Shown here: piece by piece, positions 34,698 to 63,546 of the stretch | Numbering within the stretch: position 1 is the first letter of the stretch | Layout of the letters: each line of letters starts with the position of its first letter | Assembly: GCA_964016885.1 (NCBI GenBank) | Contig: CAXHJY010001173.1 | Coordinates: forward strand, 62,001-126,000 | Direction of reading: 5' to 3' | DNA length: 64,000 bases | Origin: Eledone cirrhosa | Taxonomy: Eukaryota | Translations under genes and position numbers: made by a program | The notes under the pieces: generated by a model | Databases searched by the model: none | The model's input: the letters and a program-made list of their open reading frames with translations, nothing else | Told to the model about the DNA's origin: nothing

Positions 34698-35312
34698 GTA
34701 AAAGTTCTATTTAAATTGTTGGGATACAACAAGCAAATATTTTTATAACTGATATAAAGCACTCAACAAATATTTGGAGTAAAAACGTTCTCTCTCCTTT
34801 CTATGTCTCCTCTCTCTCTATCTTTTGCTCTCTGTTGTTCTGCTCTTTCTCTTTCTCCGTAACCCAACGGCTTATTTAAAAATATCCAATACTAACTTAC
34901 CTAATAATTGTTTCTACTTTAGGCACAAGGCCAGCAATTACCCAGTGCATTACTGGTACTTTATTTTATCGACCCTGTAAGGATGAAAGGCAAAGTCAAC
35001 CTCGGCGGGATTTGAACTCAGATCGTAAAGGGACGTAACTATGCTGGAAAGCATGGCGTCCGACCCTCTACCGATACTGCCAATCCACCGCCCTTACCTA
35101 ATAATATAAGTAAAGCTATAACCCAACTATCCACGAGCTTCCAACAGCAATGGTTGCATTCTTTAAGGGTATGTCAATATTTATTTATAAAACTGTTCTA
35201 TATTATATTTTATCTGATGAAAGCACACCATAATTTAACTTGGTGTCCTTGAAATATGTATAATGAAATAAATATGGTTTTATAAATATAGTTTCCATTT
35301 GTTAATATCGTA
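34698..35312. mobile_element. PLE family A insertion: tail only (-) joined to an inverted pLTR (+) with hammerhead 35208-35268; SINE nested at 34905-35093
   Basis: Matches 59449-59910 in two opposite orientations. Confidence 0.85.
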
Positions 35313-35389
35313 TATATATATATATATATATATATATATATATATATATATATATATATATATATACATATATATATGTATATATATAT

Positions 35390-36030
35390 ACTAGCTGAAT
35401 TACCCGCGCCTTGCTGCGTTTCAGACATTTTTTTGTAAGAAAATGACGATTGATTTTAAATCAGTGATATAATTTATGGAGAAAAACTCTGCATTTCAAT
35501 ATTACTCAATGTAAAATGTAATGCATGAAAAATTGGAAAACATTATTTTTTGTAATATATCAAATCAAAATTACATTATTAAATCTTATTCTTATTTTGT
35601 TTTTTTGTAAATAATTTTTTTAAAAATATCAATTCAAAACTTTTGTGAATAGGCATCATATCTTGTCATTTACCTATGGTTTAAATTTCATATAAATCGA
35701 AGGGGAAAAATTTTCAGTGGGGGTTTGTGCTCCCAGGGGAACCCTAATAGAGGGTTTAACCCCCTATTAGGGTGGCTTAATATTATTGAAATTTTGTGAC
35801 TAGGCATCATATTTTGTCATTTACCTATGTTTTAAATTTCATATAAATCGAAGGGAAGAAGTTTTCAGTTTGGGTCTTGTGCCCTCGAGGTACCCAGTGT
35901 TTGAAATGAAATATACTTATCCAAGTACCCTGGGAAATGTATTTTCAGAATATATATGGTTATGGGGGTCTATCTCCCAAACCATAGGAGGAGTTTGTGA
36001 ACAAACAAACAGACAGGAATACAACTTTAT
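35390..36030 (+). mobile_element. Non-autonomous Helitron/Lep1-like repeat
   Basis: Starts actagctgaattacccgcgccttgctgcg, has an internal duplication (~35650/35800) and ends ggagtt..(acaa)n..aactttata. Confidence 0.5.
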
Positions 36031-36254
36031 ACACACACACACACACATATATATATATATATATATATATATATATATATATATATATATATACATATAT
36101 ATATATACACATATATATATATACACACACACATATATATATATATATATATATATACACACATATATATATATATATATATACACATATATATATATAT
36201 ATATACACACACACACATATATATATATATATACATATATATATATATACACAC

Positions 36255-36599
36255 ATCATCATCATCATCATTTCATTTTACGTCTGCTTTTCCCTGCTTG
36301 CAAGGGTGGGACGGGAACTGATACTGGGTTGATTTCTACAGCTGGATGCCCTTCCTAACACCAACCTCATTTACAGTGAGTGCTGGGTGCTTTTTTGCCA
36401 TGGCACCTCCACGGCCACTTTGCAGTGGAATGATAGGGACCCCAGTCCCTATTATCTCATTTCTACAGCTGAGTAAACTGGAGCAATGTGAAATAAAGTG
36501 TCTTGCTTAAGGAAACAACACATCACCCGGTCTGAGAATTGAACTCACAACCTTTCGATTGCAAGGCCAATGCTCTAACCACTAAGCCATGTGCCTCCA
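36255..36599 (-). mobile_element. Full-length tRNA/V-like SINE
   Basis: Reverse complement of 25922-26272. Confidence 0.9.
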
Positions 36600-59448: not shown

Positions 59449-62400
59449 GTAAAAGTTCAATTTAAATTGTTGGGATACAACAAGCAAATATTTTTATAAC
59501 TGATATAAAGCACTCAACAAATATTTGGAGTAAAAATACGATATTAACAAATGGAAACTAGATTTATAAAACCATATTTATTTCATTATACATATTTCAA
59601 TGACACCATGTTAAATTATGGTGTGCTTTCATTAGATAAAATATAATATAGATCAGTTTTATAAGTAAATAAATACTGACACACTCTTAAAAAATGCAAC
59701 CATTACTGTTGGAAGCTCCCGGATAGTGGAGTTGTAGCTTTAATTATATTATTATTAGTATTGAATATTTTAATTTTAATATTAAGCCGTTGGGTTACGG
59801 AGAAAGATAAAGATAAAGAAGGAGAGAGAGAAAGAGAGAGAGACCAAAACAGCAAAGAGAGAAAGATATATATAGAGAGAGGAGACAGAGAGAAGGGGAG
59901 AGAACGAAGTCATATCTTGTTGAGTTAACTTAACAGTTGAGATGAAATGAATAAATAAAATTAGAAATGTTAATAATCATGAATGGAATATACATATATA
60001 AAATGAGAAATTAACCATTGTTTAAATATGATTAGATGTTTAGTTAATCATTTAAAAATTGAGATCAATATATTAAAAATTGAGATCAATATATTAAAAA
60101 TTGGGATCTATATATTAAGAAATCCATATATTACTAGAGAACTACATATCATATAATACGTATACACACGCAAAAATACATATAAATATATATACACACT
60201 TATAAAATACATAACATATCTAACTACGTATATAATATATACACACAAAAAACAAAGGATTCTTTAATTTAATTTAAGATATAGGAATCTTATAAAATGT
60301 TATAATTGTTAAGATATTAAAGGAAATGTTATGTTATACACACTTTATGTTATTAAACAACATTTTTTTTATATAAGTTTTATAAGATTACCTGTTATGT
60401 ATTTATGGCTGTTATTATATGTCTATCTGTCACGAATCTTGGGATAATCACTATACATAAGTGCAATCAAATTGTATGGATATACGCGCATATGTATATA
60501 CACAATTCCCACATATACATATATATAAATGTACCCTCAACTAATAGGTAGATACGCATCACGTATACATATACATAGATACAGACATACATTCATAAAA
60601 ACGCATAAAATATATGTATGTCAATATACATATATACACACATATAGAGAGAAGTATATATAAATACAGTACATAGTATAATTGAGTACATAAAATACAA
60701 AAGAATTATATTACAATTTGGAAATACAATTATAAGCAATATAACTTTACAATACAATTTTAAAATATTATAGAATATTTTAAGTTATAATTTCAAAATA
60801 ATAGTATGTTTAATAGATTTAGTATAGAAATTTATTTTACGTATATTCAACTTAAAATTTTGAAAGGATAAACTTTCGAAAATAGGAGTAGCTATCAGAA
60901 CAATAAAAATAAGAAATATTTTCTCCTTTCAAGAGCTCTCAATATATTTCTCTAGAATAGTTTATTATATTTATATTTATTTATATTTAGGAAGAAAAGT
61001 TATTTTTACTTGAGTGTATAATCAGTCAGAAAAAGATGAAGGAATCTAATGATTTATCGACAGGTTCAATATATTAATAAAATTAATTATATACTACATT
61101 GTAAATTTATATTTATATTTAAACGTTGAGTTTAATCTATGACTGCAGCAACTGAATAAATTATTTCTTAAGTTCAGGGAATTTTTGGTCTTTAATATAA
61201 AGAACATTTCCTCTATACAAAGATCGCAATTTTCTGAAGATGAGTTAAAAGGAGTAGCTTATGAAATAATATTCCAAATCAACGAATATTCAACGTTCTT
61301 TAGTTTTAGGTCCCATAATAGGCTACATAGAGAAGTTGAAGATTTTTTGTTTGGATCTGTAAAATAATTTTTATGATTATTGAAGTGGGATTTAAACTCT
61401 GTGGAAGTAGATCTCACATAATTAAATGAATTTAAATTAGTTTTTACATTACAATTATATACTACATTTTTAGCTAAACAATTGTTATTTAACGGACAGT
61501 TAGATTTATTTCTACAGTTACATTTATCAAATTGGATATTGCTTGGGTTATTATTGGTATTTTGGTTAGGTTTTAAATTTCTATTATTAATTCTATTAAT
61601 ATTTTGCGCTAAATTTTTGGTGGAAGAATAAGTTAATTTTATAGTATGTCTATTAAAAAATTGAGTAATATCTATGTGTTCTAGGGAAGCATTTGTCAAG
61701 AGCTTTAAAAAATAGTTTAGCAATAGGGGTTTTAATATTTAATGAGAAAGGAGGAGCGAACCATAATATGTTCCTAGTTCTATTTCGGCTTTCGGAATTA
61801 ATGTAAGGTTTTCTATTATAGTTGTTAAAATTGTTACCATAGTTAAAATTGTTACGATTATGGTTAGTTGTTATATTATTATTATTATCGATGTATTTAA
61901 TTTTATTTCTATACCCAGCTCTACCTAACGCTTCGTTGTAATAATGTGCTTTTTCATCAAATATATTCTTATTAACTGAAATTCTCGAAATTCGTTCTTG
62001 TACAGAGTTAACTATAGTATTTTTAACGGATCTGGGTGATTAGAGTTAAAATTGACGTAATTTAAGTTCTCATTTAGTTTGTGAAATGGATAATGAAGAC
62101 ATGTGTTAAGATTTAGTGTTATATCTAGAAAATTAACAATTTTATGGTTATTCTCTATTTCTACTTTTAGATTAAGGTAATTAAAAAATTGTATAATTTG
62201 TTTTCTTTTTCTATTTAGTTCACAGTTATTATTTTCTATAAGTAAAAGCATGTCGTCACGATATAAACCTCCGGTTATCTCAGGTATTTTTCTATGTAGA
62301 GAATTAATTATAAATAGGCCCACAAGATCCGTTATCTTAGCGGAATCGGATGATCCCATAGTTATGTCGAAATTATTATTTCTATCTGCCCTAGTCCAGA

Positions 62401-63010
62401 GTTGGTTATTAAATTCTATTAATGTTTTCCGTGCCGATAATATAATGTGCATTTCATTGCTAGTTAGGTCTGTATGTTTAAATGCGTAAGTTAGTGCCTT
62501 ATTCAGTAGATTAGGAGTGATAGATGAGTAATAGTTAGCAATATCCAACTGAATAAACTTATTATTATAGTTATATTTAATTTCTTTAAACCAATCGATA
62601 ACTTCACTAGTTCCTTTCCATAATTTTAAATAAGATAAATTCTTAATTTGTGGTATTATTCTGTCTAGAATATTTTTGCTAAGTCTGCCAAGGTCCGATT
62701 TAGATGGTGCAATTAATCTGACTGGTAAATCAGTTTCGAAGTTCCTTTTATGATCCTTCATATTAATCTTAGGTTTCCTTGGCATGAAGGGTTGTGTCCT
62801 ATTTTCAATGCCTAGTTCATGCATTATATAAGAGGCATCTGTATTCAAATTTTCAAGGTCGTCTTTATTTGCTACTTTGTATTTCTTCCTTAATTCCTTT
62901 AATATAAGATCGTTATAATTGTCCTTTTGTATTCCGTAAAGATTATTGGTTTTGTCAGACTTGACTAGAATTTTCTCCGTTTTTTCCAAGTTTTCAATAT
63001 TATTTTTAAT
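59449..63010 (-). mobile_element. Large PLE (family A): RT 62012-63008, linker, GIY-YIG ~61100-61723, AT-rich 3' UTR, pLTR with hammerhead (59581-59641, core mutated) and tail
   Basis: KSDKTNNLY, KDHK.NF, LDIANYYSSI, ITMGS, GGLYRDD, NFLDITLNL; CNCRNKSNCPL..C..NVVYNC. Frameshifts and stops are present. The signature resembles the Hydra clade of PLEs (to be confirmed by phylogeny). Confidence 0.93.
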
Positions 63011-63086
63011 ATATATATATATATATATATATATATATATATATATATATATATATATATATATATATATATATATATATATATAT

Positions 63087-63546
63087 GCAAAAGTTCTATT
63101 TAGATTGTTGGGATACAACAAGCAAATATTTTTATAACTGATATAAAGCACTCGACAAGTATTTGGAGTAAATATACGATATTAACAAATGGAAACTATA
63201 TTTATAAAACCATATCTATTTCATTATACATATTTCAAGGATACCATGTTAAATTATGGTATGCTTTCATCAGACAAAATACAATATATACCAGTTTTAT
63301 AAATAAATATTGACATACCCTTTCAAAATGCAACCGTTACTTTTGGAAGATATCACTATCCCTGATGTCTTCCAAAAGTAACGGTTGCATTTTGAAAGGG
63401 TATGTCAATATTTATTTATAAAACTGGTATATATTGTATTTTGTCTGATGAAAGCATACCATAATTTAACATGGTATCCTTGAAATATGTATAATGAAAT
63501 AGATATGGTTTTATAAATATAGTTTCCATTTGTTAATATCGTATAT
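63087..63546. mobile_element. PLE family A palindrome (arms 184 bp, centre 63359, tail 63087-63171) with hammerheads 63219-63279 (-) and 63439-63499 (+)
   Basis: Near-perfect inverted repeat with a 7-nt loop ctatccc; same boundary as 49334 and 35312. Confidence 0.92.

Follow-up and report, generated by a model that had tools for sequence, protein, structure and literature searches.

A duplicated RNA hairpin lies at both insertion ends of Hydra-clade Penelope-like elements and points to probable double priming on one RNA

A stretch of 64,000 nucleotides (nt) from Eledone cirrhosa (GenBank assembly GCA_964016885.1, contig CAXHJY010001173.1, positions 62,001 to 126,000; hereafter the window) contains inverted copies of Penelope-like elements (PLEs) of the Hydra clade, in which one arm carries a 3′ tail and the other does not. 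In Hydra elements, a bulged and covarying hairpin of the pattern GCUC...UU-GAGCAC was found in two copies between the hammerhead ribozyme and the ATG, and every genomic 3′ end that could be mapped lies next to the 5′ edge of one of the two. Both the hairpin pair and its agreement with the insertion ends are well supported by the sequence comparisons presented below. We infer from the position and conservation of the hairpins that reverse transcriptase (RT) binds to them. The inverted loci are probably the products of programmed twin priming on a single RNA, with each hairpin positioning an RT.

The window (32% GC) is rich in (TA)n and retroelement debris. The copy starting at 59449 served as the alignment reference for the short copies, or stubs, of its family (family A), and positions in it are given as "ref". 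The initial annotation had reported that the 3′ end of this copy recurs in four further copies; alignment recovered all five at the positions it gave. On the element sense (minus) strand, family A has two 3′ ends: one (site 1) at ref ~59449, the other (site 2) about 87 nt away at ref 59536-59541. The features of family A are as follows.

59536-59541, minus strand: putative start site 2 (tail-less end, UAU), placed by aligning the stubs with the 59449 copy; the tailed end, site 1, is at about 59449-59451.
59512-59531, minus strand: hairpin 1 of the 59449 copy, an ACUC/GAGU variant, in the tail just 3′ of site 2.
63088-63349, minus strand: tailed arm of locus 63087, with hairpin 1 at 63150-63169 and a type I hammerhead at 63217-63281.
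63350-63540, plus strand: tail-less arm of 63087, ~14 nt longer inward, with a hammerhead at 63437-63501 and no core mismatches to its partner arm.
49250-49624, minus strand: tailed arm of locus 49250, with hairpin 1 at 49312-49331 and a hammerhead at 49379-49443.
49625-49949, plus strand: tail-less arm of 49250, 39 nt longer inward, with a hammerhead at 49846-49910.
34698-34785, minus strand: tail-only arm of locus 34698, ending at site 2, with hairpin 1 at 34761-34780.
34786-35309, plus strand: non-overlapping tail-less arm of 34698, with a hammerhead at 35206-35270 and a short interspersed element (SINE)-like insertion of ~195 nt at 34904-35098.
44668-44844, minus strand: tail-less arm of locus 44668, with a hammerhead at 44707-44771.
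44845-44913, plus strand: partial tail arm of 44668, whose inner end lies within hairpin 1 (ref 59518).

As the initial annotation had proposed, 63087 and 49250 aligned as palindromes, and 34698 and 44668 as non-overlapping joints of tail and tail-less arm. At 63087, the tailed arm spans ref 59449-59715 and the inverted tail-less arm ref 59536 to ~59728, so that the two overlap; 49250 is likewise an overlapping palindrome, in which a 39-nt pyrimidine spacer was assigned to the tail-less arm. The tailed arm of 34698 ends at ref 59536 and the inverted arm extends from ref 59536 to at least 59843 (by eye ~59908), with zero overlap. At 44668, the tail ends at ref 59518 and the inverted arm covers ref 59541-59721, again without overlap. 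The tail-less arms were said to run directly into (TA)n, and in three of the four stubs the sequence indeed reads ..TTGTTAATATCG, then TATA, straight into (TA)n; the statement fails for 44668, where the arm ends in ..TTGTTAATAT followed by ~20 nt of degenerate TA.

Inverted loci of the same kind occur in further families, none of which has an open reading frame (ORF) attached (B, C, D, E, F, H and K; hairpin 1 is present in all except D). Three of them, at 39362, 50418 and 54449, had been listed alongside the family A copies, and each belongs to another family. No strand is assigned to the loci listed here.

39364-39557 (39362): family B one-tail palindrome, hairpin 1 at 39424-39448; tail-less arm longer; 4-nt microhomology.
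56484-56882: family B one-tail palindrome, hairpin 1 at 56538-56562; its 7-nt loop is not orientable.
41244-41566: family C one-tail palindrome, hairpin 1 at 41506-41526.
40034-40278: family H (C-like) one-tail palindrome, hairpin 1 at 40226-40246.
50420-51454: family E one-tail palindrome, hairpin 1 at 50465-50488; 245-nt loop placed on the tail-less arm by composition.
54453-54967 (54449): family F one-tail palindrome, hairpin 1 at 54868-54898 (GUUC/GAAC); 141-nt loop on the tail-less arm.
9940-10215 (10094): family K locus, from the hairpin search; tailed arm ~14 nt past site 2; tail-less arm longer; 4-nt microhomology.
33845-34272: family D one-tail palindrome with hammerheads; hairpin 1 not recognisable.
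41648-41946: one-tail palindrome of family D; the tail-less arm exceeds the tailed arm by 5 nt; hairpin 1 not recognisable.

Once the two non-overlapping loci and a locus recognised afterwards had been added to those of a masked inverted-repeat scan, 13 TA-flanked PLE-type inverted loci were counted. The tail was present on exactly one arm in 13/13, an outcome with a probability of at most 0.5^13 if the sites were chosen independently. Nine loci could be oriented by their central loop (A34698, A44668, A49250, A63087, B39362, D41648, E50420 by composition only, F54453 and K10094) and four could not; the tail-less arm reached further inward in all nine (two-sided sign test, p=0.004). The longer tail-less arm noted earlier at 49250, 39362, 50418 (from base composition only) and 54449 was therefore present, and 63087, 41648 and 10094 behaved likewise. 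The arms of one locus differed by 0 (63087) or 3 (49250) mismatches and those of different loci by 12-28. Any target-site duplication framing a whole unit would be masked by the (TA)n on either side.

The tails of unrelated families in the window share the bulged hairpin, whose distance from site 2 is 0-8 nt in the 3′ direction. With a strict descriptor, the hairpin was matched 13 times in the window compared with 1.2 in shuffles; eight matches were in the defining tails, two in new TA-flanked elements (10094 and 28145) and three were unrelated. Locus 10094, found through its hairpin, follows the rule of one tail and a longer tail-less arm. A covariance model produced 11 matches in the window, all in tails and five outside its training set, and missed F54453; a MAFFT alignment left the hairpin unaligned. 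At 28085-28188, a family E-like tail with hairpin 1 adjoins ~30 nt that end in (TA)n; this may be a further non-overlapping locus.

Relatives were sampled as 78 metagenome loci with Hydra-like ORFs. Exactly two hairpins were present between the hammerhead cut and the ATG in 29/33 segments and in 0/6600 shuffles; the four exceptions comprised two false ATG calls, one segment with a single hairpin and one divergent segment. With sequence anchors alone, hairpin 1 was located in 29/29 distinct families, 39-57 nt past the hammerhead cut, and hairpin 2 in 28/29, 101-134 nt past the cut and 55-83 nt from hairpin 1. Pairing of the upper stem clearly exceeded shuffles solely in the register with a 2-nt bulge, in which the three upper pairs of hairpin 1 were formed in 29/29, 25/29 and 20/29 families (22.2, 16.5 and 12.0 expected). 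In an alignment of 24 hand-picked, related copies of hairpin 1, 133/133 cells were paired with 16 two-sided changes, which was equalled by 0/500 shuffles, and these changes included G-C to A-U in the lower stem. Hairpin 1 contained ten G-U and three A-C appositions. The exact 38-nt family A pattern had no match in the metagenome contigs.

The insertion ends were then compared with the hairpins, requiring at least 85% identity to the family reference and at least 20 nt of flank, with the contig-end cases L057 and L068 dropped. All 11 mappable genomic 3′ ends lay within -5 to +1 nt of the 5′ edge of a hairpin, seven at hairpin 1 and four at hairpin 2; tail-less ends precede hairpin 1, tailed ends precede hairpin 2, and both sites are in use in the L049 family. 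In tandem context, the order in Hydra RNA is hammerhead, UA site 2, hairpin 1, UA-rich site 1, hairpin 2 and AUG. Because the genomic ends map to two hairpin-adjacent sites, the tail is a hairpin-1 unit bounded by these sites. Metagenome locus L018 (1-5083) is a near-perfect (99.9%) head-to-tail dimer of a full Hydra unit with the hammerhead, both hairpins and the ATG in this tandem context; it could have arisen during assembly from a unit that is circular or tandem.

The initial annotation had ascribed the non-overlapping loci to twin priming, with a second primer annealing at an internal UAUA site. Twin priming at an internal UA-rich site is supported. A UAUA match cannot by itself choose the site, because a 262-nt arm holds 9 TATA and 22 TAT sites of which a single one is used, the one just 5′ of the conserved hairpin; microhomology alone was accordingly rejected as the selector. 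A TA is found no more than 9 nt from hairpin 1 in 29/29 families, against a background of 51%. Inverted 5′ junctions in the metagenome repeat the geometry of the window: in L062, an arm made of tail only extends from site 1 as far as the edge of hairpin 1; in L002, such an arm ends within hairpin 1; and in L039, a tail-less arm from an upstream site 2 is accompanied by a main arm that continues ~25 nt past that site.

The shared tail-less end was also sought outside the window, in public runs of organism F (contigs X7; reads X10 and X11). Loose ends before ref 59536/59541/59546 that run into (TA)n were present in 32+58 contigs and in 1007+5207 (X10) and 1202+6193 (X11) reads, so that the claim of a single common end holds beyond the window. 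Among the 15 of 23 read joints that were listed, ten were of opposite strand. Six of these were assignable and, assuming head-to-head geometry, the arm reaching less far inward was the tailed arm in all six, although only two could have given the opposite outcome; one further joint was ambiguous and three were uninformative. The tailed arm ended at ref 59532-59544 in three of the six. Three other joints go back to restart at site 2 (ref 59546) from 59568, 59593 and 59727, in both restriction-site-associated DNA runs, reflecting either re-initiation at site 2 or fresh insertions into the TATA of old copies. Inner arm ends no more than ~12 nt from the predicted hammerhead cut were seen at 41648-41946 and 39364-39557 and in read joints at ref 59578 and 59595, as if derived from ribozyme-cleaved templates.

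The window also contains a coding relative of the family A stubs.

59449-63009, minus strand: 5′-truncated Hydra-clade PLE with RT and C-terminal GIY-YIG, a long 3′ untranslated region, a pseudo-long terminal repeat (pLTR) and an ~87-nt tail; (TA)n on both sides and no inverted arm.
61100-63007, minus strand: broken ORF in three frame segments (62012-63007, 61653-62039 and 61259-61738, then beyond the stop), with DKT, CxCX5C and CxxC..E..N..CxH motifs.

This copy had been described as the coding parent of the series. It is better regarded as a coding relative and not the literal parent, because it is 5′-truncated, carries two frameshifts and one in-frame stop, and differs from the stubs at 10-23 of ~170 bases. 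RT and a GIY-YIG-type endonuclease, the latter C-terminal, nevertheless lie within the one (broken) ORF, which has 43 relatives at E≤1e-20. DKG is replaced by DKT (KSDKT), and the linker CNC-x5-C with CDLC..E..N..CSH corresponds to CxCX5C and to CxxC and CxH around E and N, with no CCHH. The N-terminal RWK/RWR motif was found in homologues, the window copy being truncated at that end. A canonical type I hammerhead occupies the pLTR of six family A arms, ~50 nt upstream of site 2, and is also present in families B, C, D and H; its core is mutated in the 59449 copy. Family A loci show a preference for insertion into (TA)n. From these motifs family A is assigned to the Hydra clade. A Pfam search of six ORF pieces returned no RT or GIY-YIG domain, and among the best 150 of 280 sub-threshold Rfam matches (E≤1) there was no hammerhead family, those matches being microRNA-like or other chance matches.

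Other Hydra fragments accompany these loci. A solo tail-less arm of family K with a hammerhead lies at 57489-57629, suggesting that site 2 can fire alone. At 50157-50195, the outer tail of 50420 recurs as a perfect inverted copy of 39 nt, with 224 nt of (TA)n between the two. At 45991-48307, a family E-like tail-less arm precedes a Hydra ORF fragment (46454-47368), which meets an oppositely oriented Hydra endonuclease remnant, and two more such remnants, without inverted arms, lie at 5665-7633 and 28400-29478. Two inversions of other element types do not follow the one-tail rule and were rejected as members of the series. One is a SINE palindrome at 11904-12022, both arms of which start from the same 3′ end in (TA)n and which needs fold-back or two templates. 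The other, at 1775-3676, is a non-Hydra PLE inside an RTE-like long interspersed element; it resembles a plain fold-back 5′ inversion (arms 101/102 identical, 44-nt loop on the long arm) and would represent a different route to inversion.

In the programmed twin priming favoured here, two RT-endonuclease molecules, probably as a dimer, would bind a single RNA, either read-through or circular, at its two hairpins and nick (TA)n on opposite strands, and each 3′-OH would pair with the UA stretch just 5′ of its own hairpin. The cDNA begun at site 2 (cDNA2) would run ahead while that begun at site 1 (cDNA1) trails on the same RNA. On meeting hairpin 1 and the cDNA2 hybrid, cDNA1 would stall within the hairpin (44668, L002), stop at site 2 (34698, L062), or displace cDNA2 and recopy the same RNA (63087, 49250). 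The two cDNA 3′ ends would be joined through 0-4 nt of microhomology, and firing of a single site would yield a simple tailed (59449) or tail-less (57489) insertion. PLE RTs are not known to have RNase H, and the RNA would therefore persist for a second copying. Such a reaction predicts one tail, a usually longer tail-less arm and near-identical arms. The initial annotation had called for a second reverse-transcription event, possibly on a second RNA, or for later deletion. The second event is needed; one RNA fits better than two, because of the single tail at 13/13 loci and the within-locus mismatches of 0 and 3 against 12-28, and deletion is not required to explain the longer tail-less arms.

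The closest rival retains one RNA and two hairpin-set primers, and derives the overlaps from fold-back of cDNA2 followed by a switch to a short tail cDNA1 at site 2, with no displacement. It would force both the longer tail-less arm (9/9) and identical arms, and the inverted loci of the window often have junction loops of 1-14 nt together with short microhomology. Against it, tailed arms have no scars at site 2 and long tailed copies show that RT can pass this site; it could not yield L011 (described below) and leaves unexplained why long arms continue through an upstream site 2 (L039). We consider it unlikely. A dimer with two RNAs, in which each RNA is primed at one hairpin or the other and the products are joined head to head, is distinctly improbable. 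In its favour, dimerisation is predicted (PMC11167929), there are solo tail-less arms (57489-57629) and the read joint 59536/59546 is ambiguous, yet independent site choice would give one tail in 13/13 loci only at p≤1.2e-4. An asymmetric dimer could rescue this point alone, and two RNAs offer no reason for stops at site 2 or for arms of the same subfamily.

The hairpins might instead be recognised in DNA by the GIY-YIG endonuclease, which would trim a longer cDNA intermediate at two sites, in line with the idea of tail resolution (PMC8557442). The endonuclease of D. virilis required tail sequence for cleavage (cited in PMC11167929), and hairpin 2 lacks a G-U excess. Start sites on RNA for the Poseidon element of Anolis, PAc, match genomic ends directly (PMC11167929), however, while the excess of G-U over A-C in hairpin 1 and the overlap of the ends with UA microhomology, as expected from priming, also tell against trimming, which is very unlikely. 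Simple self-priming, or fold-back, with one cDNA or an antisense template as substrate (PMC3846280) and later deletion as the source of the asymmetry, is disfavoured and the least probable of the four. Palindromic junctions are common, and the non-Hydra PLE described above has its loop on the long arm, but non-overlapping arms (34698, 44668, L002, L062) are impossible by this route, upholding the earlier exclusion of fold-back; the loop would fall on the tailed arm, and deletions would not repeatedly end at hairpin 1 or site 2.

Several observations weigh against programmed twin priming or the hairpins on which it depends. The upper stem of hairpin 2 is weak (pair 2 in 13/28, p=0.15), with A-C over G-U by 8 to 3, and the hairpin-2 call in L025, one of the four ends at that hairpin, is doubtful. 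The tail regions had minimum-energy folds no better than those of shuffles (z -0.7 to 0.9). In family D the tails are one-sided yet hairpin 1 is not recognisable, L076 has only a weak hairpin 1, and hairpin 2 of family A itself is absent from the window. The shuffle p-values are optimistic, because the metagenome families are related and several come from similar assembly series. Among the reads, joint 59536/59546 could be tail-to-tail or two-tailed, joint 59532/59893 may be locus 34698 itself, and 8/23 joints fell outside the listing. Contig depth, which is not copy number, was 2.6x higher just inside site 2 than in the tail, and strict 1:1 pairing predicts less. In L011 the tail-less arm measures 183 nt and the tailed arm 2 kb, counter to the length rule, and this locus is compatible with double priming only if cDNA1 overtakes or primer 2 used an upstream repeat. 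Identity of the arms could also be obtained by gene conversion.

A broader and more tentative proposal, to which we give slightly less than an even chance, is that a duplicated landing pad for RT exists clade-wide in Hydra PLE RNAs: a single dimer would bind both hairpins and prime both target strands, and one programmed double-priming reaction with strand displacement would yield the inverted pLTRs, the one-sided tail and the partial tandems. Were this so, internal priming would be defined by an RNA element, as in telomerase, twice per insertion. An RNA hairpin that fixes internal priming bears on the evolution of template definition, because PLE RTs are the sister group of telomerase RT. Double priming from two hairpins would likely explain the inverted, one-tailed insertions of the PLE class. 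An RNA element of ~20 nt that occurs twice and is aligned with both insertion ends across 29 families is a precise target that acts in cis: where RT starts, and whether an inverted arm forms, should be predictable once a hairpin has been deleted, moved or swapped.

Elsewhere in the window, a satellite of ~49-nt, partly palindromic units occupies ~5.6 kb at 19664-25289 (96% identity at multiples of 49 or 98 nt). A 2.4-kb higher-order trinucleotide array with open frames reading poly-Thr/Val lies at 16366-18819, and a 48-nt tandem array has expanded within a SINE-like repeat at 26867-28071.

The element class, the architecture of inverted pLTR with one-sided tail and the existence of two start sites were already known; what is added here is a duplicated hairpin that coincides with the two insertion ends, together with the interpretation, which it supports, of double priming on one RNA. 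The open-access papers searched contained no description of either, subscription papers, Repbase reports and picture-only supplements being outside the search. In the Hydra clade of PLEs with a C-terminal endonuclease, DKT, CxCX5C and CxxC/CxH around E and N are diagnostic (Craig et al. 2021, PMC8557442), and the elements of the window share these features together with the type I hammerhead near the 3′ end and the (TA)n target. The supplement of that paper lists an octopus family, Hydra-1_Obim, with a (TA)n preference, and its Fig. 2 legend describes an inverted 5′-truncated copy with a one-sided tail. Tails there measure 30-40 nt, compared with 45-158 nt here (~87 in family A). The paper names the formation of tandem and inverted PLE insertions as an open question, and the words hairpin, stem-loop and twin are absent from its main text. 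The published consensus of Hydra-1_Ajap starts with both hairpins, and that of Hydra-2_Ajap ends with hairpin 1.

Purified PAc cuts and extends both strands in vitro and initiates reverse transcription at two internal RNA sites bounding the tail, with a dimer predicted and the steps after initiation left unvalidated (Frangieh et al. 2024, PMC11167929). The Hydra elements resemble it in having two such sites. PAc belongs to another clade, however, and starts in an AC-rich stem-loop without target homology, whereas here UA microhomology lies 5′ of two sequence-conserved hairpins; the available text of that paper leaves inverted arms unexplained and describes no duplicated RNA element. Palindromes explained by a model in which an antisense template is used for self-priming (Arkhipova et al. 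2013, PMC3846280) likewise have an inverted pLTR, an optional tail and a palindromic junction, but the non-overlapping loci of the window and those with a longer tail-less arm do not fit that model. In the Hydra elements the second site would be fixed by an RNA element, and the arms often overlap by 50-350 nt. In twin priming of L1, two target strands prime one RNA, giving a head-to-head inversion joined by microhomology; unlike in the Hydra elements, the second primer acts at variable internal sites and the arms scarcely overlap. Formation of the Hydra loci would thus work like twin priming, but programmed.

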